From assembly GCA_022827785.1 (NCBI GenBank), contig JAJEIM010000042.1, forward strand, positions 2,924-66,923: DNA of 64,000 nucleotides, given 5' to 3'. A program made the position numbers and the translations under genes. The notes beneath the pieces were generated by a model. That model made no database searches. It was not told the DNA's origin and was given only the letters and a program-made list of their open reading frames with translations. Shown piece by piece: positions 5,223-57,111 of the stretch (positions within the stretch are counted from its first letter, which is position 1; each line of letters opens with the position of its first letter). This stretch comes from Acidimicrobiia bacterium (GTDB taxonomy: Bacteria; Actinomycetota; Acidimicrobiia; Spongiisociales; Spongiisociaceae).

Positions 5223-5870
5223 ATGTTGATCCTCCAACTCGAGTTGTGGCTGGTCGCCACCAACACCTACGTAGTCGCCCCCGAGGCCGGTGGGCCGGCG
5301 GTCATCATCGATGCGCCACCGGAATGTTTCGAGCCCCTCACCGACCTGCTGGCGACGCACGATCTGACGCCGACGGCCTTACTGGTCACCCACGGACATG
5401 TCGATCATCTCGGAGGCGCCGCCGACCTCGTGGCTCGAACCGGGGTCGCCGCCTACCTCCACCCGGAGGATGACTTCCTGGCCCGGCGCCCGGAGGATCA
5501 GCTCCGCGTCTTGATGGGCACCGTGCCGCCCGGCGACTACCGGCCGCCCGAGACGTATCGGGAACTCTCCGACGGTCAGGTTCTCGACCTGGCCGGCCTC
5601 CGGCTCGGAGTGGTCGCAACGCCGGGACACACGCCCGGGCACTGCTGCTTCTATCTGGCCGAAGAGGGGGTGTTCTTCTCGGGCGACCACCTGCTGGCCG
5701 GCTCGATCGGGCGCACCGACCTCCCCGGCGCTGACCAACAGACCCTCATGACCAGCATGAGGGACAAGATCCTTCCACTTGACGACGGGGTTACTGTGAT
5801 GCCGGGCCATGGCCCTTCGACCACCGTGGGTCGCGAACGGCGGTCCAACCCCTTTCTGATAGGTCTGTGA
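5223..5870 (+). CDS. MBL-fold metallo-hydrolase (glyoxalase II-like)
   Basis: THGHVDHLGG metal-binding motif and later GHTPGH. 215 aa. Confidence 0.7.
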   Translation: MLILQLELWLVATNTYVVAPEAGGPAVIIDAPPECFEPLTDLLATHDLTPTALLVTHGHVDHLGGAADLVARTGVAAYLHPEDDFLARRPEDQLRVLMGTVPPGDYRPPETYRELSDGQVLDLAGLRLGVVATPGHTPGHCCFYLAEEGVFFSGDHLLAGSIGRTDLPGADQQTLMTSMRDKILPLDDGVTVMPGHGPSTTVGRERRSNPFLIGL

Positions 5871-7115
5871 ATGAGCTTCCGGGCGCCCAAGGGCACCGAC
5901 GACATATTGCCTCCGGAGTCCCGGCGTTGGCGCGAGCTGCTCCGGTCCTGGGATCTGCTGGCGGAACAGTACGGGTACGCCTACGTCGCCACCCCCGTAT
6001 TCGAGGCCACCGACCTGTTCGCACGGGGAGTGGGCGAGGCTACCGAGGTGGTCGAGAAGCAGATGTACAGCTTCCGGGACAAGGGCGGGCGGAGTCTCAC
6101 CCTCCGTCCCGAGGTGACTGCGAGTGTCCTGAGGGCGTACATCCAGGCAGGTCTGTCGGGCGAGTTCAAGGGGGCCTACTCGGGACCTTGCTTCCGGTAC
6201 GAACGCCCGCAGGAGGGCCGCCGCCGGCAGTTCTGGCAGCTGGGGGTCGAGTACCTGGGCGCCCCTGACGCCGAGGCCGATCTGGAGGTGATCGAGCTCG
6301 GCTATCGCTACCTGCTGGACTGCGGTCTCGGGGACGTGGTCGTGCACGTGAACTCCATCGGCGACGCCCCGGATCGGGTGGCCTACCACGACCGGCTTTC
6401 GGGGTGGTTGGACGAGCGGAGCCACCTGCTCTCCCCGGATGCCCGCAGGCGGATCCGTACCAACCCCTTGCGGGTGCTGGACTCCAAGGCCGACCGGGAA
6501 GTGGTGGCCGATGCCCCCGTCCCCGTCGATTACCTGGAGGGCGAGGCCGCCGCGCATCACGACCAACTCATCGCGGGTCTCCAGGAACGGGGGATCGCGC
6601 ACCGGCATGCGCCCCGGCTGGTACGGGGCTTGGACTACTACAACCGCACCGTGTTCGAGTACATCCCGCCCCGCTATGCGGCCGCCCATAACGCGGTCGG
6701 CGGCGGCGGCCGTTACGACGGATTGTCCCGCTTGCTCGGTGGTGCGGATCTGCCGGGCGTCGGCCTGGCGCTCGGGCTCGACCGGATCCTGTCGGCCGCG
6801 GGGCAGAGCCCTCCGGCGAGGGCGTTGGACGTGTTCCTGGTAGTGGCCGACCAGGAGCGCCGCAGCCTCGCCCATGCTTTCGCTCGTCGCCTCAGGGCAG
6901 CCGGGGTCAGGTGTGATCTGGTGGCGGGCCGCCGATCGGTCAAGGCGCAGTTCCGGGCGGCCAATCGGCGTGACGCGGCGGCGGCGGTGGTGATCGGCGC
7001 CGAGTGGGATCAGGGGATGGTGACCTTCAAGGACCTAAGTTCGGGCGACGAGCGCACCATCCCGGCCGGCGAGGTGGCGGCGTGGGTGATCGGCGGGCCC
7101 GGGGGAGGGTCCTGA
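5871..7115 (+). CDS. hisS: Histidine--tRNA ligase
   Basis: MSFRAPKGTDDILP N-terminus and class-II aaRS motifs. Stop TGA overlaps the aspS ATG (ATGA at 7113-7117). Confidence 0.92.
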   Translation: MSFRAPKGTDDILPPESRRWRELLRSWDLLAEQYGYAYVATPVFEATDLFARGVGEATEVVEKQMYSFRDKGGRSLTLRPEVTASVLRAYIQAGLSGEFKGAYSGPCFRYERPQEGRRRQFWQLGVEYLGAPDAEADLEVIELGYRYLLDCGLGDVVVHVNSIGDAPDRVAYHDRLSGWLDERSHLLSPDARRRIRTNPLRVLDSKADREVVADAPVPVDYLEGEAAAHHDQLIAGLQERGIAHRHAPRLVRGLDYYNRTVFEYIPPRYAAAHNAVGGGGRYDGLSRLLGGADLPGVGLALGLDRILSAAGQSPPARALDVFLVVADQERRSLAHAFARRLRAAGVRCDLVAGRRSVKAQFRAANRRDAAAAVVIGAEWDQGMVTFKDLSSGDERTIPAGEVAAWVIGGPGGGS

Positions 7116-18514: not shown

Positions 18515-19153
18515 TCAGGCGCCCCGGTATTCCAGGATGACGAGGAGCATCCAGGGTGCGTAGAGCAGGGATGGAACGTTGGCGGTGATCCACCGGTAGC
18601 GCGGCGCCCCGTACTGGAGCGCCGGCCAGGCCAGTGCCAGGGCTATCAGACCCGCCGGCCAGGCCCGGCCGCCCACCACGCCCAGATAGGTAGGTACGAG
18701 GTCGAACAGTTCGGAGAAGCGGGCCAGCGCCGAGGCCGACAGGTCTGCCAGCCGGCCGGTGATCCACATGCAGACCAGGATGGCCGGCACCCAGGTGAGG
18801 AGCGTCTCCCACGGTTCAGCCTCCGCCCGCCGACCGGATCGCCCGAGTCCCCCCTCTGCGGCCAGGCCTATCACCGCCGCGCCGAGCATCAACACCGCCA
18901 CGCCGACCGCCAGGACTTCGGACTCCGGCGGCGCCAGATTCAGCGTGAGCAGGCCGAGCCCACCCAGGGCCATCCCGATCCCCATGCCGGCGAGTCCGGT
19001 GCCGATGACCGCCAGCACTACCCCGAGCACCGTCCGCAGCGACTGGATGCCGATGGTCGCCCACCTCCAGACCTCGGACCCGGGCTGGAGAGTCGGGGGC
19101 AGCAGTTCCGGGACGTTCCGGCGCCGCCGCTCATAAGGTGGGTAGTCGGTCAC
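18515..19153 (-). CDS. Hypothetical integral membrane protein
   Basis: 212 aa with several hydrophobic helices (GLAGMGIGMALGGLGLL...). No recognisable family. Confidence 0.5.
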   Translation of the reverse strand: MTDYPPYERRRRNVPELLPPTLQPGSEVWRWATIGIQSLRTVLGVVLAVIGTGLAGMGIGMALGGLGLLTLNLAPPESEVLAVGVAVLMLGAAVIGLAAEGGLGRSGRRAEAEPWETLLTWVPAILVCMWITGRLADLSASALARFSELFDLVPTYLGVVGGRAWPAGLIALALAWPALQYGAPRYRWITANVPSLLYAPWMLLVILEYRGA

Positions 19154-20397
19154 CGGACGGCTCCCCGTCTCTCGGACCGCTGCAGTGCCTCCCAGTAGAG
19201 CTCCACCGGATGAGCGACGCGGGCCTCATGGCCGAGTTCGCTCAGGTAGCTGCGCAGCTGGATCTCGCATCCCGGATTGGCGCTGGCTACCAGAGTGGCG
19301 CCGGTCGCTTGCACCTGTTCCGCCTTGGAAGAGCCAAGCCGGCTCGACATGTCAGGCTCCAGCAGGCTGTAGATGCCGGCCGCGCCACAGCATCCACCGT
19401 TCGGGTCGACCTCGACGACGGTCAGGCCTGCCGCGGCCAGGATCTCTCGGGGCTGGTCGGTAATCCGCTGCACATGCCGGAGATGGCAGGGGTCCTGCAC
19501 AGCCACCCGGTCGCCGCTAGCGCTCAATCTGGGGAGCCTCCCGTCGACGATGGCCTCCGCCACCACGTCGTTCGCATCGGCCACCCGGGTGGCGAGCTCC
19601 TCCCCGCCGTCGGCCCAATGGTCGTACTCCTTCATGTGGGCTCCGCACCCGGCCGAGTTGACGACTACCAGGTCCACTCCTCGGAAGGCCGCCATGTTCA
19701 CGGAGGCCATCTTCCGGGTGTCGTCCGCCCAGCCGTCATGCGCGGCGAGTGCTCCACAACAGGTCTGGCCCCGGGGTGAGACCACTTCCCACCCTGCCGC
19801 CGCCAGCAGCTCGACGGTGGCGGTGTGGACATCCCCGAACCAGGCGTCCATTACGCAACCGGCCAGGAGAGCGGCCACCCCCCGTCTCTCCCCCCGTGCG
19901 GCCCGAGTCCTCCCTACGATCGAGGGTGGCCTCCCCTTGAGCGATCGCATCCCTGCCAGGCTGCCCCGGATCCGGCGCGGCGCCAATCTGTCGAGCCGGG
20001 ATGACTGGGCGATCGACGCGGCCACCGCACCTAGACGAACCGCCGTCCGGCTGCGCAGCAGGCGGGCGGTCACCAGCCGCCGTAGCCGGCGGGTGAACCC
20101 CGATGTCTGGGCGGCTATCTCGGCTCTGGCACCCTCCATGGCCCGGCCGAACGGCACGAACGACGGGCACACGACCTCGCAGGCGCGGCATTGCAGGCAT
20201 GCGCCCATGATCTCCTCGAAGCGGCTGTCCACGGGCCTGCCCGCGGCGACCGCCGACATCGCGGTCAGGCGTCCTCTCGGCGAGGCTGTCTCCAGCCCGG
20301 TCAGCCGGAAGGTGGGACAGCTCGGCAGGCACAGCCCGCACTGGATGCACGAGGAGAGCTCGTCTGCTCGCGGCGCGTGACGGGTCACCCAGCTCAT
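19150..20397 (-). CDS. glcF: Glycolate oxidase iron-sulfur subunit (GlcF-like, 4Fe-4S plus CCG domains)
   Basis: CIQCGLCLPSCPTF and CLQCRACEVVCPS ferredoxin motifs plus cysteine-rich CCG repeats. Overlaps upstream glcE. Confidence 0.8.
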   Translation of the reverse strand: MSWVTRHAPRADELSSCIQCGLCLPSCPTFRLTGLETASPRGRLTAMSAVAAGRPVDSRFEEIMGACLQCRACEVVCPSFVPFGRAMEGARAEIAAQTSGFTRRLRRLVTARLLRSRTAVRLGAVAASIAQSSRLDRLAPRRIRGSLAGMRSLKGRPPSIVGRTRAARGERRGVAALLAGCVMDAWFGDVHTATVELLAAAGWEVVSPRGQTCCGALAAHDGWADDTRKMASVNMAAFRGVDLVVVNSAGCGAHMKEYDHWADGGEELATRVADANDVVAEAIVDGRLPRLSASGDRVAVQDPCHLRHVQRITDQPREILAAAGLTVVEVDPNGGCCGAAGIYSLLEPDMSSRLGSSKAEQVQATGATLVASANPGCEIQLRSYLSELGHEARVAHPVELYWEALQRSERRGAVR

Positions 20398-24377: not shown

Positions 24378-25169
24378 TCAACGGGTCATCGGCCACCCGA
24401 TGCCGGCCGAGTCTTCCACCCAGGCCAGTTCGGTCTCCGGCATCAGGACCAGATCCGTCTCGGTCGGTGGGGAGAACTCGGGCAGCGAGATGGCACGGAT
24501 CCTTCCATCCGCCTGCACCCGGAGGTCGACCTCCACCCGCTCCACCGGAAGCCGCTGGAACCCGACTCCGTCCGGCGCCACCAAACGGCGGATCAGGACG
24601 AGGGCTCGGTAGGTGTCCGATCCGGTCCGGGTGACCGATCGGGTCCGGGTCCATTCCACGTAGGACACGGTCCCGGCGCTTGATAGCTCAGGTGCCACCC
24701 CGTCGGGCAGTCGCAGGCCCGAAGCGGCCTGCACCCGCTCGGTCCATACGTCGGATGGGTCGATGGTGAAGAACTCCAACACCAGCCATTCGGCCGTTCC
24801 GGCCACCGTGCGCTCCGTCCCTTCCCGGTCGACCGCCATGAGGTCAGCCTCCGAGATCCGGGCGGTGACCTCCGGCTCGGCAAGGGCCACGGTGGCCGGT
24901 GCCGGTCCGCCCCCGCCAGCCACCGGCAGGAGGGTGGTGGTTGTCGCCAGCGGCTCGGAGGCGACGGCAATCGGGGTGACCGGCACCAGATCCGACGCCG
25001 TAGGCCGGTTGAGATGCCGGAAGACGACCACGCCCAGCACCACCACGATCAGGCCGGCTGCGACGCCGTAGATCAGGAGCTTGCGGTCGGGCTGGGGAGG
25101 GATGGTGAGCTGTTCCCACGGGAGGTGCTCGCTCACCTGGTCGTCGGTTGGGGGTGGAAGGTTTGGCAC
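24378..25169 (-). CDS. Hypothetical membrane-anchored protein (single N-terminal TM, Pro/Thr-rich linker)
   Basis: TM segment LLIYGVAAGLIVVVLGVVVF, then a soluble domain. No homology recognised. Confidence 0.45.
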   Translation of the reverse strand: MPNLPPPTDDQVSEHLPWEQLTIPPQPDRKLLIYGVAAGLIVVVLGVVVFRHLNRPTASDLVPVTPIAVASEPLATTTTLLPVAGGGGPAPATVALAEPEVTARISEADLMAVDREGTERTVAGTAEWLVLEFFTIDPSDVWTERVQAASGLRLPDGVAPELSSAGTVSYVEWTRTRSVTRTGSDTYRALVLIRRLVAPDGVGFQRLPVERVEVDLRVQADGRIRAISLPEFSPPTETDLVLMPETELAWVEDSAGIGWPMTR

Positions 25170-25319
25170 GGGTGGACCCTTTCACTCCTCCCGGTGCCGA
25201 CGAACATCGCGCCTACCGGCAACATACCCGGAACATCCGGGCATTTCCAGCACGTCCTGATACTCCGTCGGGCAGGGATAACCGGGAAACCGGTCGCATG
25301 CGGACTAACGTTGTTCGCT

Positions 25320-25982
25320 ATGGTGTCCAACCCTGACCCCAGGCCCGGCCGGTGGGTGTTGCCCTTGGTGGTGCTGGGAATGATCCTGTTCACCTGGGTC
25401 TGGGTGAACCGTCTGGAGCCGCCTGCCGTCGAGGGTACGGCGGGTCCATCCGCTACTACGCGGTCCACGACCGAGACTACGCCGGCCGTTGACGAAACCA
25501 CCGCCGGCGGTGACGGAACCGAGACGCCCGACGAGACCACCCCCACGACCCTCCTGCCACCCGAGATCGAGGTGTACCTCACCAACCTGGCGGAGGACAA
25601 GGCTGCGCTGGCCGCGCTGGTCGAGGAACTGAACGCTGTCAACGACGCCTGGGAGAACCGGGATCAGACTGGCGTTACCTTCTCCGAGACCGAGGCCGCC
25701 ATGGTTGCCGCCTCCGAGCGGGCCGTAGTCTTCAGCGAGGCGGTGGAACTCCACCGGCCACCGGAGGACGTGGCGGGGTTGACCGACGCTCACCAGCGGG
25801 TCTACGAGTCGGCGGCCGCGGTAGCCGAAGCAGCCGCCAACACCCTCGCCGGACTGAGGGCGCCCGACACGGGAGAACTCCGTCGAGCAGCCGTGGTCGA
25901 GTTCCGGGCTGCGGCGGCCAGCTTCGAGCAACAGGTCGACCAGATCAGCGAGATCGTCATGCAAGGCTTCGGCGCCGCCTGA
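25320..25982 (+). CDS. Hypothetical secreted/anchored protein with a Thr-rich linker
   Basis: Internal ATG chosen at 25320. The 25014 ORF start would overlap the convergent upstream gene. TM WVLPLVVLGMILFTWVWV, then a TTRSTTETTPAVDETT low-complexity region, then a helical domain. Confidence 0.45.
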   Translation: MVSNPDPRPGRWVLPLVVLGMILFTWVWVNRLEPPAVEGTAGPSATTRSTTETTPAVDETTAGGDGTETPDETTPTTLLPPEIEVYLTNLAEDKAALAALVEELNAVNDAWENRDQTGVTFSETEAAMVAASERAVVFSEAVELHRPPEDVAGLTDAHQRVYESAAAVAEAAANTLAGLRAPDTGELRRAAVVEFRAAAASFEQQVDQISEIVMQGFGAA

Positions 25983-27236: not shown

Positions 27237-27478
27237 ACAAGCATCCTCTCATCAAGGGAATCCCCCATGCCGCGGTGAGTAGACCGCTTGGCGAGTGGTC
27301 GCCTCTACCCCTTTGCGATCATCGCACCCAGGCATCTATCAGGGCGTGGCGTGGCAAGGCTAGTCCGCTCGATCATGAATCGGAAACGCTACCCGTGCGC
27401 GCCACTCCGGTTTTCCCGATCAAGTAGGGGGCGCTGCTCCATGAGGGTGGAGGGGTGGCGTCCCTGTTCCGGCCCGGT

Positions 27479-28159
27479 TCATCCGTCCGGTTTCGAGGGT
27501 TTGGCGGCCACCAGCAATATGTCATGGGCCGCCCGCACCAGGCCGTCCTCGCCCTCCACATCACGGAATACCTTCTCGTTCTTCAGTATCTCCAGGTCAC
27601 CGAAGTCAGTGGCGAGGGCTTGCTCGTCAAACAGGACCTCCGGAAACTGGGGGCCTCCAACCCCGTCCGCGATGTTGTCGGAATGATGGGCGATCAGCCA
27701 GACCGTTCCCCCGGGGGCGACGGCGTTCGTGGCCTTGGCATGAGCCACCCGGCGGTCATGCGGCGGGAGTTGAAGGTAGGACAGGACCACCAGGTCGAAG
27801 GCACCCTGCGGCGGCGTCCAGCCCCCTACCACGTCCGCCACCTCGAAGATCACCTCCACCGCGTGGTCGGCCGCCAGCCGGCAGGCCTGTTCGATGGCGA
27901 CCGGGGACAGGTCGATCCCGGTGACCCGGTGGCCTCGGGTGGCCAGCCACACCGCGTTGCGCCCCTGGCCGCACCCGAGGTCGAGGATCCGGCGAGGGGT
28001 GAGCCCGGTCGCATACTCCGCCAGGAACCGGTTGGGGTCGGTTCCCCAAACCATGCCTCGGGTCGCGTAGCGCTCGTTCCACGCCTCCAGGGTGCCGCTC
28101 TCGTGATAGGAGCCGGTTGGAGTATGGCCCGAGGCTTCGGTGTGGCCGGCCGGCTGCAT
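27479..28159 (-). CDS. Class I SAM-dependent methyltransferase (TehB/TPMT-like)
   Basis: Motif I ILDLGCGQGRNAVWLA and post-I VTGIDLS. 226 aa. Confidence 0.75.
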   Translation of the reverse strand: MQPAGHTEASGHTPTGSYHESGTLEAWNERYATRGMVWGTDPNRFLAEYATGLTPRRILDLGCGQGRNAVWLATRGHRVTGIDLSPVAIEQACRLAADHAVEVIFEVADVVGGWTPPQGAFDLVVLSYLQLPPHDRRVAHAKATNAVAPGGTVWLIAHHSDNIADGVGGPQFPEVLFDEQALATDFGDLEILKNEKVFRDVEGEDGLVRAAHDILLVAAKPSKPDG

Positions 28160-28171
28160 GGAACCGGGGGG

Positions 28172-28564
28172 TTACCCGTCGCTTCGGGCGGCCACGATCT
28201 CGATCTCGACCCGGAACCCGCCCGGCAGGGCGGCCACTTCCACCGCTGACCGGGCCGGGGGGCCGGCCTCGAAGTACCCGGCGTACACCTCGTTGATAGC
28301 TGCGTAGTCCCCGATGTCAACCATGAAGATGGTGGTCTTGACGATGTCGGAGTAGCCGAGCCCGATGTCGTCCAGCATGGCGCCGATGTTGTCCATGACC
28401 TGGCGGGTCTGCGCAGACACGTCACCATCCTCTCGTCCACCCTCCGGGACGAGTGCCACCTGACCCGATAGGAACACCAGACCCGCCACCTCGACCGCCA
28501 CCGAATACGGACCGATGGCGGGTGGTGCGCTGGGGGTTTCGAGAATCCTGCCTGCCATCGTCAT
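28172..28564 (-). CDS. ridA: RidA/YjgF family reactive-intermediate deaminase
   Basis: AIGPYSVAV...KTTIFMVDIGDYAAINEVYAGYF. Internal start chosen (about 130 aa). The ORF-track start 28687 gives an atypical 40-aa extension. Confidence 0.8.
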   Translation of the reverse strand: MTMAGRILETPSAPPAIGPYSVAVEVAGLVFLSGQVALVPEGGREDGDVSAQTRQVMDNIGAMLDDIGLGYSDIVKTTIFMVDIGDYAAINEVYAGYFEAGPPARSAVEVAALPGGFRVEIEIVAARSDG

Positions 28565-35191: not shown

Positions 35192-35677
35192 CTAGAAGAC
35201 CCGGAACTCCCAGCTGTATCCGCCCTCGTCGGGAAGTCCGCTCAGCTTCCGCCAGTTCACCAGAACGGTGTGTGGTCCGGGCGTCCACAGGATGGTCGAG
35301 GAACGCGTCGGCGCCCACGAATGCACGCCGGTTCCCTCCACGAAACGTACCTCCGAGTCGGGCACCCGGAACCCGTCGATGTAGATGTCCACCCGGTAGC
35401 CGACCGGAACGTCCACCTCGACGGGCGTCTGGAGCGGTACCTGGCTGCCGGGCTGGGGCGAGATGCTCTCGAGCACGCGAGGTAGGGGCTCGCGACCCGT
35501 GTCCGGTGACCCGAACACGAACCCGATCACGACCACCAACACCGCCGCCAGTCCGAGCAACAGGAAAACGGCGAGGTAGCGCCGGTCGGTCAAGTCAGGC
35601 TCTCCACGGCAGGGGATTCTATGGGGTGGCTCACCTGTCGGGTCCGCCGCCGGGATCGTTGCCGTTCCGGGCGACAC
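35192..35677 (-). CDS. Hypothetical membrane-anchored protein
   Basis: 161 aa. TM YLAVFLLLGLAAVLVVVIGFVF, then a beta-rich region. No family recognised. Confidence 0.4.
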   Translation of the reverse strand: MSPGTATIPAADPTGEPPHRIPCRGEPDLTDRRYLAVFLLLGLAAVLVVVIGFVFGSPDTGREPLPRVLESISPQPGSQVPLQTPVEVDVPVGYRVDIYIDGFRVPDSEVRFVEGTGVHSWAPTRSSTILWTPGPHTVLVNWRKLSGLPDEGGYSWEFRVF

Positions 35678-35722
35678 GTGGGCCGGAGTGGGTTGTCATG
35701 GCCATGACGCTACCCTGATCCC

Positions 35723-49563: not shown

Positions 49564-50742
49564 ATGATGGCTAATCGGAACACGACGTGCTTCAGAGACG
49601 AGAGTAATGGGGATGGGTCGAGAAAGGCAGCCTTCGACTCCGCGCCGGCGGCTGGGATGATGGCGAGTCGAGGATCCGGGGGAGCGGTGTCAGCTATGCC
49701 AACCCGGCGTAGTGTGGTACTTGAGAACGTCCCGCTGGCCTCGCCGTTTCCTGAGGGTTGGTACTTCGTCACGAGCCGTAAGGCGCTCGAAGCCGGGATG
49801 ATCGAAAAGACCTGGATGGGGGAGAAGATCGTCGCCTGGAGCGACGAGAACGGGAACGTGTGCGTCGCCGGCGCCTTTTGCCCGCACCTTGGCGCCGATC
49901 TGGGACCGACCGCGGGAGGGCGCATCTGCGATGGGAGGCTGGTCTGCCCGTTCCATGGCTACGAGTTCGACGCGACCGGCCAGTGCGTGGCCACCCCCTA
50001 TTCACCCCCGCCTACCAAGGCGAAGTTGCGCGTCTTCGAGACCCGGGAAATCGCCGGCATGATCTTCGCCTGGTGGGGGATCGGGGGGCGGGCACCGCAA
50101 TGGAGCCTGGCTGACGACGATCTGGACCAGGACGGATGGACCGGTCTCAAGATCAGGACCGTCCGCTTTCCCGGCCATCCCCAGGAGACCACGGAGAACT
50201 CGGTGGACGTGGGCCACCTGCGCTACGTCCATGGCTATGACAGCGTGAGTCGTGTCGGGCGGGTCTCGGTGGACGGGGCGCGTCTTGAGAGCGACTTCGA
50301 CTTCATGCGCACCCGGACCATCGGCAAGGTGTTGAACCTCACCTTCGACGTGGCGGCGCGTACCCGTATCTTCGGGTTGGGCTATTCGTTCGTGCAGATC
50401 CGCGAGCGCTCGATCGGAATGGACATGCGCCTGTGGGTGCTGGCCACGCCGGTCGACGGTTTGCTCATCGACCTGTCACTGGTTTCGCAGGTGCGGGAGA
50501 TACGCAAGCCGCGGCGGTGGATAGCGGGCCTGGGGTTTCTGCCGGTGAAGTTACGCGCCCCCATCATGAACCGGTTCATTTCCGCTCAGCAATACGGGGA
50601 CGTCCAGCAGGACGTGATCATCTGGAGCCGCAAACAGTACCGATCCCGCCCGCTTCTCTGCCGTTCCGACGGCGAGATCATGCCGTTCCGGCGCTACTGC
50701 GCCCAGTTCTACCCCGACCGGGGCGACCCGGAGAACCGCTAG
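49564..50742 (+). CDS. Rieske [2Fe-2S] non-heme-iron oxygenase, KshA/Neverland-like
   Basis: Rieske motif CPHLGADLG-x17-CPFHGYEF. Mononuclear-iron motif E-x3-D-x2-H-x4-H (ENSVDVGHLRYVH). About 390 aa like KshA. True start may be a later M. Confidence 0.75.
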   Translation: MMANRNTTCFRDESNGDGSRKAAFDSAPAAGMMASRGSGGAVSAMPTRRSVVLENVPLASPFPEGWYFVTSRKALEAGMIEKTWMGEKIVAWSDENGNVCVAGAFCPHLGADLGPTAGGRICDGRLVCPFHGYEFDATGQCVATPYSPPPTKAKLRVFETREIAGMIFAWWGIGGRAPQWSLADDDLDQDGWTGLKIRTVRFPGHPQETTENSVDVGHLRYVHGYDSVSRVGRVSVDGARLESDFDFMRTRTIGKVLNLTFDVAARTRIFGLGYSFVQIRERSIGMDMRLWVLATPVDGLLIDLSLVSQVREIRKPRRWIAGLGFLPVKLRAPIMNRFISAQQYGDVQQDVIIWSRKQYRSRPLLCRSDGEIMPFRRYCAQFYPDRGDPENR

Positions 50743-50860
50743 CGCGCGAGCTGACCGGATCGGGGGTATGCAGATGGCCCGCTGGGGAGGGACGTGTTCT
50801 CTCGGTTTTCGCGTTCTTGATGCCCGGGTATGGGCGACGAACTGCTGAATCAGCGCCCTC

Positions 50861-51949
50861 TTACAGCGGCTTGCGGGCCAGGAAACAATACAGCGGTGTG
50901 AAGATCCCGGCCCTGCCACCCGCGACATATGCCCTGGCGGTCCGATCCATCAGCCTCACGACGTCCGCGGTGCCTTCCGGAAATATCTTCACCAACTCGG
51001 CCAGCCTGAGTCCCCCGATCATCGCCTTCCGGCCCAATGGGACCCTGTACAGGGTGCCGCCCGGCGTGCCGCGCCGGGTCTCCATGGGCCGATACCAGGG
51101 AACGGGGTGGCTCGGACTGTTCTGCGCTACGGCCCGATCCTTCCCTTCGAGGACCTCGAATCCCGCTTCTTCGAGCGCCCGGTTCACCTCGCCCGTGGTG
51201 GCGATTCCGTCGAGCGCGATGCCGTGCATCAGCTCATGCTCGATGGCTCGGTGCCGGTCGTCGTCGGGATCGAACCTGTCCGTCAAGCACATCTCCTGGC
51301 CCCAGAAGAGAGCTCCGGGCTTGAGAACCCGGTGGATCTCCGCGAACGCGCTCACCTTGTCCGGCGCATGGCACGTCGATTCGATGGCGTAGCCGCGGTC
51401 GAATGTGTCGTCCGCGACGGCGCTCATGTCCATGAAGCTGCAGGCAAGGTAGTCGACCACGTGGTCGAGACCCGCCTCGGCATTCAACGACTTCGCCTTG
51501 TCCAATTGGAGATCGTTGTTGTTGACGCCTACGACCCGGACACCACCCTCCCGAACGACACGGCGCATCGGGCCGCCGATCCCGCAACCGACGTCGATCA
51601 CGGTCATGCCCTCGCGCAATTCCAGCTTGTCGATCATCAGTCGCTGGTGCCTGATCTGCGATTCTTCCAGGCTCTCCTCGGGCGACAGTGGCGCGAAGTG
51701 CAGGGACTCGCTCCAACCGAACACCATGAACTCCCCGCAAAGGTCGTAGTAGTCCCTCACGGTTTTGGCGTGGTCGTAGGCTGTTGCGCCGGTTCCCGTG
51801 CGAATTGCCCGGTCGGTCCATCCGTTGAAGTGGCGCACGCGACCGGCGACGTCCGTCCCACGGTACGTCGCCTTGAGCCCGGTGGCTAGCTCGCGCAGAC
51901 CCATGAACCCTGGGACATCAACAGCGACGGGGTGTCTTCTCGTGTCCAT
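50861..51949 (-). CDS. Sterol 24-C-methyltransferase (ERG6/SMT)-like SAM-dependent methyltransferase
   Basis: SMT region I YYDLCGEFMVFGWSESLHF. SAM motif VIDVGCGIGGPMR. GVNNNDLQLDKAK and YAIESTCHAPD match ERG6-family signatures closely (ERG6: GLNNNDYQI..AK, YAIEATCHAP). Internal ATG start at 51949. Confidence 0.85.
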   Translation of the reverse strand: MDTRRHPVAVDVPGFMGLRELATGLKATYRGTDVAGRVRHFNGWTDRAIRTGTGATAYDHAKTVRDYYDLCGEFMVFGWSESLHFAPLSPEESLEESQIRHQRLMIDKLELREGMTVIDVGCGIGGPMRRVVREGGVRVVGVNNNDLQLDKAKSLNAEAGLDHVVDYLACSFMDMSAVADDTFDRGYAIESTCHAPDKVSAFAEIHRVLKPGALFWGQEMCLTDRFDPDDDRHRAIEHELMHGIALDGIATTGEVNRALEEAGFEVLEGKDRAVAQNSPSHPVPWYRPMETRRGTPGGTLYRVPLGRKAMIGGLRLAELVKIFPEGTADVVRLMDRTARAYVAGGRAGIFTPLYCFLARKPL

Positions 51950-52109
51950 TCTCCGCGCACCAGAAAATACTACAGGGAGAGAGAGGCGATCATGGCTACG
52001 GCGGCAGGATGCATCCGAGAGGGATCCTGCCCACCCGTCGAATCGGTCTAGATCCGTCCGGTTCGGCGCCACGGCCAGTACCGGGCCACACTCTCGAGTG
52101 GATCGCCTC

Positions 52110-54137
52110 CTACACCGGCAGTTCGTGCCGCTGCGCGGCGATGACGAACTTCAGCTTGTTGTTCACCGACGAAGATGGGAACGGGCTGATCTTCAGCTTG
52201 TACCTGGCGGGTGAGATCTCGAGGGTGAAATGGTGTACGAGCATCAGCAAATGGATCGCCATTTGAAGTGACGTCCACCGGGAGCCCAGGCATGTGTGGG
52301 TACCCAGACCGTACGGCGCAAATGAGGATCCGACGTGTTCCCTGCGCGGCGCTAGATAGCGACCGATATCAAACGAGAAGGGATCGGGGAAGACTTCCTC
52401 CATGTAGTGTGTGGCCGTTTGGGCAATCACGACCCGGGACCCCTGCGGGAGTTCGTATCCGTCAACTGTGCACGTGTTCATCACGTTTCGATAGGATGCC
52501 GGCACGATCGGATAGACACGCATGCACTCCATGATGAACCGGCGTGTGACGTCTATCCCAGGTCCGGTGATCTCATCACGATCGGGATCCCCGTTGGCGA
52601 ACAAGGCATCGGCCTCGCCCTGGATCTTCTCGTAGAACTCGGGCTGTGACACCATCGCGTAGGTGATCAAGCCAAGCTGGTCACCCACATACATGCTTGC
52701 GATCAACGGCGCCGAGAGCACGAACGGCAGATTCGACTCCGGGAGGAACTGCCGGTCGCTCGTATGCATGCTCAGAAGGTCATCGGCAAGATCGCGAGGG
52801 CACCCTGCCCGCTGGGCGGGCGTGTGGACGCTCTGGACTCGTTCCACAACCTCTCCGACCAGCTTCGCCCGGCGCTTCATGGCAGGAGTACGCAGCATGA
52901 ACTTGGGCATGTTCCTGACGACATGGGTCTGAAGGGCTCGTTCCTTGAACTTGTGCAGGTCATCGACGAGATCCTGGGAATCGATACTGACGGTGAGCGG
53001 CGACATTGTTGCGTTGACCAGGCGCCTGCACATCGCCTTCGCGGGAAGCACATCTCCGACAGACCAGGCTGCCATGTGGTTCCGGGCATTGGAGTAGACC
53101 TCATCCAGCTGAGCTTCCAGCCTCGCGCGTGAATAGGCCGGCTGCATGGACTTGCGATACCGGAAATGATCACCACCGTCGAGGGTAGGCAATAACCCCG
53201 ATCCTCCGTATACCTTCTCGAAGTCCTCCAGATAATCCTTGGCCCTCAGATACATGCGCCCGTGCCGATGCACCCAGTGGTTCATTTCTGGTCCGGCGAG
53301 AAAGATCATCGGGTTGGCGAAGGGTGGACGAACCTGGAACACGGGACCATATTCTTGCGCGAGCTCTGCAAATAGTGCAGGAATATTACCTTGACGAAGG
53401 TGTCGACTGCCCAGCAGATGGCGAAGCGGCGCAACCGGAATCGGCTTAGCGAAAGCGGAGGGTCTGAACAAGGACCCAGCCAGGTTGTCGCTAACTGCTG
53501 CGGCGATGGACCTGCCGATCAGGTCCATCTTGCCGATGAATTCAACACGCCTTTCCGACTCTTCATCAAGGTCAAATATGAAGCGCAAGACATCACATGT
53601 ATTGATGAGACAGATGATAATGATATCTCTAGGGTCCGGAATCTCGTTGGCGAAGATCGCTCGACCGAGGCGCGTCTTGACGAAGTCTACAGCAGTACCT
53701 TCCCCAGATCTGGCATACGTGTCCTTCTGACATCCGCCCCGGGCCAACGACCAGAAGTCACCGTCGTGGTGCTGCAAGATCTTCAGGTCGACCAATCGAT
53801 CAAGGGTTAAGTCGATAATCGATTCTGCACGGGGAGCGAGCCGTTCGATCCAGTACTGGGCGTTCCGCTGAACCGGCTCTGCGGCGATCTTCTCGAGAAT
53901 AGGATCCAGGGCAGGATCGCCTGTTTCTGTTCGATCCAGAAGGATCAAGGAATCCATATCCGTGTCGATACGAGATAGCAGCGACAGCTCTCCCAACACG
54001 GCGCCGATAACGGCACAGTTCAGATCCCACCCGGGAACCTGCCGGAAGTAGCCACTCTCCTCGTTGAGGAGCGTGAGGACGAACTCGTCGAGCAAACTGA
54101 GCGTCTGACTGGTCGCACTGCTTGCGGTAAGAGTCAT
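52110..54137 (-). CDS. Cytochrome P450 with N-terminal GPP34/GOLPH3-like domain (fusion, 675 aa)
   Basis: C-terminal P450 has EXXR (ECMRVYP) and heme-thiolate loop FAPYGLGTHTCLGSRW. N-terminal about 200 aa match the GPP34 family (LLDEFVLTLLNEESGYF..VPGWDLNCAVIGAVLGELSLLSRI ... DPRDIIIICLINTCDVLRFIF). Lower GC than the flanks. Confidence 0.85.
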   Translation of the reverse strand: MTLTASSATSQTLSLLDEFVLTLLNEESGYFRQVPGWDLNCAVIGAVLGELSLLSRIDTDMDSLILLDRTETGDPALDPILEKIAAEPVQRNAQYWIERLAPRAESIIDLTLDRLVDLKILQHHDGDFWSLARGGCQKDTYARSGEGTAVDFVKTRLGRAIFANEIPDPRDIIIICLINTCDVLRFIFDLDEESERRVEFIGKMDLIGRSIAAAVSDNLAGSLFRPSAFAKPIPVAPLRHLLGSRHLRQGNIPALFAELAQEYGPVFQVRPPFANPMIFLAGPEMNHWVHRHGRMYLRAKDYLEDFEKVYGGSGLLPTLDGGDHFRYRKSMQPAYSRARLEAQLDEVYSNARNHMAAWSVGDVLPAKAMCRRLVNATMSPLTVSIDSQDLVDDLHKFKERALQTHVVRNMPKFMLRTPAMKRRAKLVGEVVERVQSVHTPAQRAGCPRDLADDLLSMHTSDRQFLPESNLPFVLSAPLIASMYVGDQLGLITYAMVSQPEFYEKIQGEADALFANGDPDRDEITGPGIDVTRRFIMECMRVYPIVPASYRNVMNTCTVDGYELPQGSRVVIAQTATHYMEEVFPDPFSFDIGRYLAPRREHVGSSFAPYGLGTHTCLGSRWTSLQMAIHLLMLVHHFTLEISPARYKLKISPFPSSSVNNKLKFVIAAQRHELPV

Positions 54138-55161: not shown

Positions 55162-55238
55162 GGCCCCGTCGTCCAGCCGGCCTAGGACGCTGGCCTTTCA
55201 AGCCAGAAACGCGGGTTCGAATCCCGTCGGGGCCACCA
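55162..55238 (+). tRNA. tRNA-Glu (anticodon TTC), CCA encoded
   Basis: Manual fold. Acceptor GGCCCCG/CGGGGCC, D-stem GTCC/GGAC, anticodon stem CTGGC/GCCAG, loop CTTTCAA, T-loop TTCGAAT. Confidence 0.85.
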
Positions 55239-56545: not shown

Positions 56546-56617
56546 TCGGGAGTGGTGTAATCGGCAGCACGACAGGTTCTGGCCCTGTTAGTAGGGGTTC
56601 GAGTCCTCTCTCCCGAG
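56546..56617 (+). tRNA. tRNA-Gln (anticodon CTG)
   Basis: Manual fold. U1-A72 acceptor TCGGGAG/CTCCCGA, D-stem GTGT/GCAC, anticodon stem ACAGG/CCTGT, loop TTCTGGC, T-arm AGGGG-TTCGAGT-CCTCT, discriminator G. Confidence 0.8.
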
Positions 56618-56644
56618 CGGTTGGTATCATTCGCCACACGCAGT

Positions 56645-56717
56645 GGCCCCGTCGTCTAGGGGCCTAGGACACCGCCCTCTCAAGGCGGAGACGCCAGTTC
56701 AAATCTGGTCGGGGCTG
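56645..56717 (+). tRNA. tRNA-Glu (anticodon CTC)
   Basis: Manual fold. Acceptor GGCCCCG/CGGGGCT (G1-U72), anticodon stem CCGCC/GGCGG, loop CTCTCAA, T-loop TTCAAAT. 27 nt after tRNA-Gln. Confidence 0.8.
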
Positions 56718-57111
56718 CGATAGAACGACCCGGTCGGACCCATCACCGTGTGAAGGGTTCCGGTCGGGTCATTCCTTTCGCTGTCTCGGACGGCTCTTCG
56801 CAAACGAGCGGGTCGATATGTGTCCGACCGAGAGCCTCGCTCCCGAAAATCCGGTGCTTCGCATCGGGCCCCGCCCCCACCACCACCCATCCTGTTGGAG
56901 CGTGGTCGGCCATGCCCGGCTGGATGCCGGGGATCGGCTGTCGCTCCATGAAGCCTTCCATGTTCCCTCGGTCCGGCCGGTCCGATCGTCATCGGCCGGT
57001 TAGGTGCTTGGCGATGGGCACCTTATAGCGGGGGTGTGACGATTCCGGCCACGATCTGCGAGAACGCGAAAGAACGGTAAGGAAGCGCCTCCGCGATCGG
57101 TGAGGGTCGTG

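Follow-up and report, generated by a model that had tools for sequence, protein, structure and literature searches.

In this study, we describe a gene on the reverse strand of a 64,000-nucleotide stretch of DNA (contig JAJEIM010000042.1, assembly GCA_022827785.1), which at its full length is called the window. Judged from its sequence, the gene is a homolog of the ERG6/SMT family of sterol methyltransferases (SMTs). In our view, it probably encodes a catalytically competent SMT-family enzyme of a distinct sponge-symbiont subfamily, whose reaction would be an optional step added to a cassette for the oxidative remodelling and transport of sterols.

The family assignment was examined via domain, sequence, and structure comparisons. 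In Pfam, the SMT C-terminal domain (Sterol_MT_C, PF08498) scored 55.9 bits against a gathering score of 21.7 (E 4.5e-15), together with a Methyltransf_11 domain (E 4.6e-16), and Sterol_MT_C was precomputed in all 120 homologs listed. The protein aligned end to end with yeast ERG6 at 34% identity (E 7e-67), in a numbering that reproduces the published positions Y81, G84, E195, and W286. An exhaustive HMMER search of 1.84 billion cluster representatives gave 237 clusters at E <= 1e-30. Identity was 41% to the rice cycloartenol-C-24-methyltransferase 1-like protein (P0143, E 7.9e-69), 35% to the Cladosporium erg6 cluster (P0192, E 3e-50), and 41% to the 'sterol 24-C-methyltransferase family protein' of sponge Acidimicrobiia, including Candidatus (Ca.) Poriferisocius. 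Full-length homology to yeast ERG6 and plant SMT1 was thus 34-41%, with Regions II and III and the C-terminal domain retained. The five residues essential in yeast (H90, D125, G129, P133, and E195) are all present and were kept in 193-194 of 194 clade members, and the Region II positions (DxGxGxxGP) are invariant or nearly so across the clade.

The original prediction had placed the gene in this family by its motifs and had claimed a similarity beyond that of generic class I methyltransferases. Both quoted motifs were found, namely EFMVFGWSESLHF at 51695-51733, which contains FGWSESLHF, and YAIESTCHAP at 51362-51391. The Sterol_MT_C score above its cut-off, the full-length ERG6 alignment that had been proposed as a check, and the eukaryotic SMTs matched in the database agree with the claim. 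A non-sterol reciprocal match in a non-sterol neighbourhood had been named as contrary evidence; the best named matches outside the gene's own clade were all sterol methyltransferases, and the conserved neighbours are steroid-type enzymes. Searches of the PDB by sequence and fold gave only generic class I and olefin C-methyltransferases, because no SMT structure exists. The nearest solved folds were TleD and the geranyl diphosphate (GPP) and farnesyl diphosphate (FPP) methyltransferases, which are olefin C-methyltransferases of terpenoid substrates. The AlphaFold2 (AF2) model reached a pLDDT of 78 and a pTM of 0.81. No SMT model of NCBIfam matched either the window type or the canonical type, so this comparison was uninformative.

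The features of the gene, with S-adenosylmethionine abbreviated as SAM, are as follows.

50861 to 51904, reverse strand: most likely coding sequence (CDS) of an SMT-family SAM-dependent C-methyltransferase of the divergent 'MVF..SLHF' subfamily, 347 amino acids plus stop (Pfam, homologs)
51695 to 51733, reverse strand: Region I (sterol-binding), differing from DFYEYGWGxSFHF at ERG6 positions 81, 82, 83, 86, and 89
51569 to 51601, reverse strand: Region II, SAM-binding motif VIDVGCGIGGP, with D125, G127, G129, G132, and P133 all kept
51362 to 51391, reverse strand: Region III, with E195 kept and A196 replaced by Ser, a clade signature
51212 to 51223, reverse strand: GIAL, aligned to ERG6 248-251 (GDGI), with Ile at position 249 (alignment)
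50867 to 51037, reverse strand: Sterol_MT_C, PF08498 (Pfam, residues 346-402 of the 403-residue reading frame)
51905 to 52109, reverse strand: 205-nt spacer from the stop of the neighbouring P450 gene to the SMT start, which together with 50743-50860 bounds a ~1.3-kb segment missing in syntenic relatives

The minus-strand open reading frame (ORF) is intact (50861..52072), with a maximum of 403 amino acids from the first GTG and in-frame ATGs at 51949 and 51904. Its homologs are 345-354 amino acids long, and their N-termini (MRLRDL.., MQLRKL.., MKLRKL..; MxLRxL...) line up with MGLRELATG at 51904. A 99% identical gene in a sister metagenome-assembled genome (MAG; GCA_022821195.1, contig JAJEEB010000002.1) is also called from ATG 51904. 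Because the homolog N-termini and this gene call agree, the CDS most likely starts at ATG 51904 and not at ATG 51949, which had been raised as a candidate start. The 15 extra residues from 51949 are unconserved, as is the N-terminal extension from GTG 52072, and both starts were rejected. The ratio of nonsynonymous to synonymous divergence (dN/dS) was 0.18-0.28 against four homologs, which indicates purifying selection.

A divergent subfamily in sponge symbionts of several phyla

Canonical SMTs carry TDFYEYGWGxSFHF in Region I and Gly, Asp, or Asn at position 249, whereas the subfamily of the window SMT carries xEFMVFGW(G/S)ESLHF and Ile249. The canonical signature (Y81-E-Y-G-W-G86 ... F89-H-F91) has been proposed to stabilise the carbocation. 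The window SMT itself has M81, V82, F83, G84, W85, S86, L89, H90, and F91; compared with yeast ERG6 and plant SMT1, it has other residues in place of E82 and of two of the six aromatics in Region I. Most of these states are shared by the 194 clade members (M81 in 187, V82 in 166, F83 in 186, L89 in 189, S196 in 189, and I249 in 187). A gapped BLAST alignment to ERG6 had placed Asp at position 249; it was rejected in favour of Ile because G248-G268 is equally long in both proteins and no indel is needed. In a survey of 116 full-length representatives, each standing for a cluster at 50% identity in a set of 1.84 billion proteins, only the clade's own representatives (P0134, plus partial P0139 and P0208) showed EFMVFGW..SLHF / ..AL in full. 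The sister clusters P0135, P0137, and P0138 (51-56% and 43% identity) have the SLHF / ..AL part only, and nearly all other representatives (<=42% identity) end in the canonical ..GWGxSFHF. The names of the sister clusters and of the representatives with an odd Region I held nothing useful. The core clade was monophyletic in 90 of 100 neighbour-joining bootstraps.

According to a recent preprint, every SMT with activity on desmosterol or 24-methylenecholesterol shares a set of 25 residues (Brown & Welander 2025, bioRxiv 10.64898/2025.12.19.695621), and the window SMT keeps 21 of these. Its further changes are Y81M, E82V, Y83F, A196S, and Ile249. The preprint showed that Gly249 is needed for propylation, that G249I in a Chlamydiae SMT abolished the C29 and C30 products, and that bulky residues at 249 in a bacterial SMT stop second methylations. 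In soybean SMT1, replacement of the Region I aromatics by Leu likewise stops second methylations. The published features of propylating (24-isopropyl) SMTs are Gly249 with Phe at 81 and/or 83; the window SMT has Ile249, though F83 is present.

The original prediction named the enzyme a C-24 methyltransferase. The SMT family was borne out, but 'C-24' is not established, because Region I, on which that identity had rested, is the altered part (Y81M, E82V, G86S, F89L), as it is in a nematode homolog. This homolog, STRM-1, lacks the Region I signature and methylates C-4 of 3-oxo sterols, not C-24 (J Lipid Res 2019, PMC6997595). Its Region I without signature aromatics is a precedent, by analogy only, that remodelling can move the methylation site; STRM-1 was not identified among the cluster representatives.

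In vitro, SMTs encoded in sponge-symbiont metagenomes were previously found to add methyl, ethyl, and even propyl groups to sterols (Brown et al. 2023, Nat Commun 14:1859, PMC10070321), and SMT1/ERG6 was reported as enriched and often 'scattered' in the genomes of Ircinia MAGs (PMC9531527). A bacterial ERG6 homolog as such is therefore already known. The window SMT has the same family and domain pair (Methyltransf_11 and Sterol_MT_C) as the SMTs of Brown et al. and of Brown & Welander, comes from the same habitat (sponge microbiomes of Aplysina, Ircinia, Sarcotragus, and Petrosia), and lies within their search criteria (E <= 1e-50, >= 30% identity to ERG6). However, it is only ~40% identical to the canonical bacterial SMTs, with M81/V82/F83...L89 in place of Y/E/Y(F)...F and Ile249 in place of G/D/N, and it lies outside any cluster of oxidosqualene cyclase (OSC), CYP51, ERG24, and SdmAB. 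It differs from eukaryotic SMTs in its bacterial-chromosomal location and in an N-terminus ~35 residues shorter than that of ERG6. Supplementary Data 1 of the Welander-lab work holds second SMT copies with ~35% identity to ERG6 in some clusters, and these might be of the window subtype. In NCBI, canonical symbiont SMTs are named 'sterol 24-C-methyltransferase family protein', and window-type proteins only 'class I SAM-dependent methyltransferase' or 'methyltransferase domain-containing protein' (clusters P0003/P0041/P0113 compared with P0140). Because these names are generic, the subfamily is invisible to name-based surveys.

The window has a GC content of 64-70% and is a housekeeping region that encodes SecDF, RelA/SpoT, AspS, AlaS, ArgS, LigA, MnmA, GatAB, and GltX. 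The named relatives of its AlaS are Acidimicrobiia/Actinomycetota proteins at 60-62% identity. The sister-MAG contig is near-identical, and accessions in the JAJE... block are those of MAGs from Caribbean Ircinia sponges (isolate names jk18...). The gene thus comes from an Acidimicrobiia-type sponge symbiont of the Ircinia microbiome set. The high-GC actinobacterial context that had been predicted was thus right in composition and affiliation, but this is a sponge symbiont with a P450/Rieske cassette and not a generic actinobacterium.

A distribution scan with one genome per species found close relatives of the window SMT in at least 491 species genomes, and a previous report counted 7,966 SMT homologs in IMG metagenomes (PMC10070321). 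Both numbers contradict the earlier statement that bacterial SMT homologs are few. The best 80 of these at least 491 relatives were 71-82% identical to the window SMT and spanned at least six phylum-level lineages, with MAGs of Dehalococcoidia/Chloroflexota, Acidimicrobiia, Ca. Dadabacteria, Alphaproteobacteria, Thermodesulfobacteriota, and Binatia; many of them bear recognisable sponge-MAG isolate names. Identity to the Chloroflexota, Dadabacteria, Alphaproteobacteria, Binatia, and Thermodesulfobacteriota copies was 71-78%. Synonymous divergence (dS) was unsaturated, at 0.80 against a Chloroflexota copy and 0.64 against a Dadabacteria copy. Since the SMT is this similar across phyla while AlaS is only 60-62% identical within its own class, the comparison indicates that the SMT subfamily moved horizontally among sponge symbionts of several phyla.

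The gene cassette around the methyltransferase

Two genes flank the SMT gene in the window.

52110 to 54137, reverse strand: GPP34 (GOLPH3)-cytochrome P450 fusion ('GPP34_L'), 675 amino acids (Pfam), 205 nt upstream of the SMT gene on the same strand
49696 to 50742, forward strand: KshA-like Rieske non-heme-iron oxygenase, 348 amino acids, with Rieske and KshA_C domains, convergent with the SMT gene

We counted neighbours in 72 related genomes in which the sequence extends a full 8 kb to either side, with non-overlapping ORFs clustered. The following were found within 8 kb of the SMT gene.

GPP34-P450 fusion: 52 of 72 genomes
KshA-like Rieske oxygenase: 52 of 72 genomes
GPP34-P450 and Rieske oxygenase both: 47 of 72 genomes
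MMPL/HAE3 transporter with sterol-sensing domain (SSD): 47 of 72 genomes
LkcE-like FAD amine oxidase: 37 of 72 genomes
LppX/LprAFG lipoprotein: 18 of 72 genomes
Major facilitator superfamily (MFS) transporter: 17 of 72 genomes
ERG4/ERG24 reductases: 6 of 72 genomes
None of these partners: 15 of 72 genomes

Gene order in the cassette varies across phyla and the content persists. In a typical Chloroflexota locus, the MMPL transporter gene ends ~25 nt before the SMT start. The Chloroflexota relatives also have the FAD amine-oxidase-like protein and an LppX-type lipoprotein, and in some cases ERG4/ERG24 reductases and a second, canonical SMT. The transporter is HAE3/HpnN-like with an SSD; HpnN equivalog status was rejected, as its scores fall well short of all curated cut-offs. 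For the ERG4/ERG24 proteins, a match to delta14-sterol reductase was obtained (E 6e-30). No OSC was found in 80 related loci, and their conserved neighbour families held no de novo sterol genes except ERG4/24 in 6.

The SMT gene is an accessory module of this cassette. Two loci, L082 (Aplysina aerophoba, MKWU01000207) and L104 (Sarcotragus foetidus, LXNI01000042), share ~15 kb of synteny with the window, including the housekeeping flanks. The gap between the stop codons of the Rieske and P450 genes is ~105 nt in L082 (10025-10133) and L104 (10025-10130), compared with 1,367 nt with the SMT gene in the window (50743-52109). This is a clean presence/absence polymorphism between the P450 and Rieske genes. 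Neither flanking repeats at the SMT junctions nor a consensus promoter or terminator around the SMT gene was found above chance. A reverse survey from the GPP34-P450 protein gave 27 loci in JGI metagenome contigs; 16 of them have the Rieske gene nearby, 11 the transporter, 10 the FAD oxidase, and only 6 a window-type SMT.

In the fusion protein, GPP34 covers residues 15-215 (E 6.7e-26) and the P450 residues 245-661 (E 8.2e-35), with the heme-thiolate loop YGLGTHTCLG and the ExxR motif (ECMR) intact. The P450 part is closest to CYP725/CYP120/CYP51-type enzymes, but the identity of a CYP51 orthologue was rejected. The fusion gene has a GC content of 57% and a GC content at third codon positions (GC3) of 0.69, whereas GC3 is 0.81-0.87 in the SMT, Rieske, and housekeeping genes. 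These lower values suggest that GPP34-P450 was acquired more recently than, or separately from, the surrounding genes. A previous report found the GPP34+P450 architecture to be exclusive to sponge symbionts of many phyla (Microbiome 2025 13:4, PMC11706023). The window neighbour has the identical architecture and is 60-87% identical to the Aplysina, Sarcotragus, and Petrosia metagenome copies. Its close relatives with a traceable contig prefix (MKWU, LXNI, LXNJ, JGIcombinedJ30088) are all from sponge metagenomes; Ga... and JGI247... contigs are unsourced. Two GPP34-P450 copies occur in L074 (999-3032, 9117-11126), L085 (4181-6157, 8049-10025), and L100 (5871-7817, 8001-9953); the two L100 copies lie side by side, and those of L085 and L074 are separated by ~2-6 kb.

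The Rieske protein shares with KshA the Rieske and KshA_C domains and intact motifs for the iron-sulfur cluster (CPH..CPFH) and the mononuclear iron (DVGHLRYVH), and KshA was its best solved match (E 1.5e-24). However, identity is low, and no KshB-like reductase or other steroid-catabolic genes were recognised near the window gene. The candidate SdmA was rejected (28 bits against a cut-off of 600).

As far as we know, the linkage of GPP34-P450 to a KshA-like oxygenase, an SSD transporter, sterol reductases, and SMTs has not been described so far. The report on GPP34_L proposed interference with phagosome maturation and names neither sterols nor methyltransferases (0 occurrences), whereas the conserved neighbourhood (Rieske, MMPL, SMT) points to lipid chemistry. 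Our literature search found no paper relevantly joining GPP34 with sterols and sponge symbionts. The conserved linkage suggests lipid chemistry for GPP34-P450.

Some loci hold other SMTs or other arrangements. A second, canonical-type SMT (Region I TDFYE[YF]GWGxSFHF), ~40% identical to the window type, lies within 8 kb in five loci.

L018, 12426 to 13484, reverse strand
L023, 15220 to 16260, reverse strand
L058, 12441 to 13541, reverse strand
L062, 16083 to 17027, reverse strand; F83 and Gly249, the published features of a candidate 24-isopropyl-forming SMT
L074, 6694 to 7779, forward strand; W replaces F89

A variant cassette without GPP34-P450 (MMPL-type transporter, KshA-like Rieske oxygenase, SMT) was seen in L040, L044, L054, and L081, from Ca. 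Dadabacteria / Thermodesulfobacteriota MAGs. Both L040 and L054 have an ERG4/ERG24 reductase upstream; gene-by-gene mapping did not extend to L081. In Dadabacteria, a third SMT-like type (cluster P0144) with Region I TEFCERGWGQSIHF lies ~13 genes away on the same contig.

An Rfam scan of the window gave three tRNAs and nothing else.

55162 to 55238, forward strand: tRNA-Glu(UUC)
56546 to 56618, forward strand: tRNA-Gln(CUG)
56645 to 56718, forward strand: tRNA-Glu(CUC)

The distance between these genes and the 5' end of the P450 gene is 1-2.6 kb, and they could be an integration hotspot; the arrangement is, however, identical in the SMT-less syntenic loci. Five high-GC3 ORFs of 167-551 amino acids lie amid the housekeeping genes (5379-7034, 18515-19225, and 35192-35695 on the reverse strand; 24687-25982 and 27428-28249 on the forward strand), and no Pfam match at E <= 1e-5 was found for any of them.

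Possible functions of the enzyme and their meaning

In the reading that we favour, the enzyme would use SAM to methylate an olefinic carbon, either in a sterol or in a closely related polycyclic triterpenoid, by the carbocation mechanism typical of the family. It would act on a sterol that comes from the sponge host or that is made by genes elsewhere in the symbiont genome, and the SMT would be an optional addition to the oxidative remodelling and transport functions of the cassette. If the enzyme acts at C-24, Met81, Val82, Leu89, and Ile249 would limit it to at most one added carbon. Its preferred substrate or attack position may differ from the desmosterol and 24-methylenecholesterol C-24 reactions of canonical bacterial SMTs. 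The enzyme is probably active, to judge from its conserved residues, and the window locus may remodel sterols rather than make them.

Several observations weigh against this reading. The window SMT deviates at 4 of the 25 conserved residues (T78G, G86S, F89L, L341M), and G86 and F89 belong to the residues invariant in all SMTs shown active. Since 7 of 11 SMTs found inactive carry deviations at the conserved residues (bioRxiv 10.64898/2025.12.19.695621), the window SMT could be inactive on the usual substrates. Ser86 is also the minority state in the clade (46, against 147 with Gly, n=194), and the confidence of the AF2 model is low exactly at Region I (residues 62-69). No assayed member of the subfamily was identified in the literature covered by our search, in which the Welander-lab supplements carry no sequence text. 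GPP34_L was interpreted in the literature as an effector that binds phosphatidylinositol 4-phosphate (PI4P), blocks phagosome maturation, and so modulates host phagocytosis, not as an enzyme of lipid chemistry (PMC11706023). The cassette includes no redox partner for either the P450 or the Rieske protein. Linkage is strong but not obligatory, because 15 of the 72 genomes have the SMT without any partner within 8 kb. Lastly, the absence of any OSC, squalene monooxygenase, CYP51, ERG24, or SdmA/B gene, which itself favours this reading, is a result for the 64-kb window, the only part of the MAG within reach of the search.

It is possible, though unlikely, that the subfamily consists of SMTs with a non-canonical substrate or attack site, such as a 24-methyl side chain attacked at C-26/27, the nucleus of the sterol (compare the nematode 4-SMT), or a host sterol oxidised by the P450 or Rieske enzyme. 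The cassette would then be a system of sterol remodelling and trafficking by which symbionts of many phyla rewrite sponge sterols.

We also doubt that the gene encodes an ordinary C-24 SMT of de novo bacterial sterol synthesis, as in OSC-CYP51-ERG24-SdmAB-SMT clusters, with the remaining pathway elsewhere in the genome. The protein family is the same as in those clusters, and Kelly et al. reported OSC/CYP51/ERG24 clusters in Ircinia MAGs including Acidimicrobiia, with SMT1/ERG6 often scattered (PMC9531527); bacterial SMTs from sponge metagenomes also methylate desmosterol in vitro (PMC10070321). However, the window holds none of the pathway genes, the 80 related loci hold none but ERG4/24 in 6, and the neighbours are not SdmA and not a CYP51 orthologue. 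Region I and position 249 are unlike those of every SMT shown active. Because canonical SMTs coexist with the window type in the same loci and in sponge-symbiont Acidimicrobiia, a different role for the window type is suggested.

Methylation of a non-sterol olefinic lipid (squalene, a hopanoid, or another triterpenoid or polyprenoid) seems rather unlikely. The squalene and botryococcene methyltransferases of Botryococcus braunii are SMT-family members. The loss of aromatic and acidic signature residues from Region I, the affinity of the associated transporter to the HAE3/HpnN hopanoid-transporter group, and the nearest solved folds, TleD and the GPP and FPP methyltransferases, would all fit such a substrate. 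Sterol_MT_C and Region III are kept, however, and the neighbours include a KshA-family oxygenase, ERG4/ERG24 sterol reductases, and canonical SMTs; the transporter, far below the curated cut-offs, is no HpnN equivalog.

It is very improbable that the gene is a relic, in decay or without catalytic activity, that travels with the cassette. The deviations at four residues conserved in functional SMTs would fit this, but the ORF is intact with a dN/dS of 0.18-0.28, and no variation in the SAM-binding and essential residues is seen among ~194 sequences of several phyla. As the deviations are themselves conserved clade-wide, a selected new specificity is suggested rather than drift. That sponge DNA was mis-binned into a bacterial MAG, as the mostly eukaryotic distribution of the family might suggest, can be dismissed as extremely improbable, since the gene sits among 64 kb of bacterial housekeeping genes with matching GC3, with bacterial flanks syntenic in other metagenomes, relatives on multi-megabase bacterial chromosomes, and neither introns nor eukaryotic flanking genes.

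What appears to be new is the divergent and widespread subfamily together with its spread between phyla, the polymorphic insertion of the SMT gene, and the link to the GPP34-P450 cassette. Side-chain-alkylated steranes (24-isopropylcholestane and 26-methylstigmastane) are used as the oldest chemical evidence for animals, and this argument hinges on which organisms can make the sterol precursors. Canonical sponge-symbiont SMTs are already known to complicate that picture. In this study, we found a second, much larger SMT lineage, present in at least 491 species genomes and exchanged between phyla inside sponges, with an altered sterol pocket. This lineage is physically coupled to oxidases and an SSD transporter, not to a cyclase, and the locus offers the sponge-symbiont-specific GPP34-P450 a concrete biochemical context. 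If the subfamily acts on a non-canonical sterol or site, bacteria would become candidate producers of the unusual sterols of sponges and, through these, a candidate origin of the corresponding sterane biomarkers, and the 'phagocytosis-evasion' protein GPP34_L would be reinterpreted as a lipid-modifying enzyme. Should the enzyme prove active on sterols, predictions based on 'SMT copy number' or on the 25-residue rule would overlook this subfamily, and symbionts may edit the sterol pools of their hosts.

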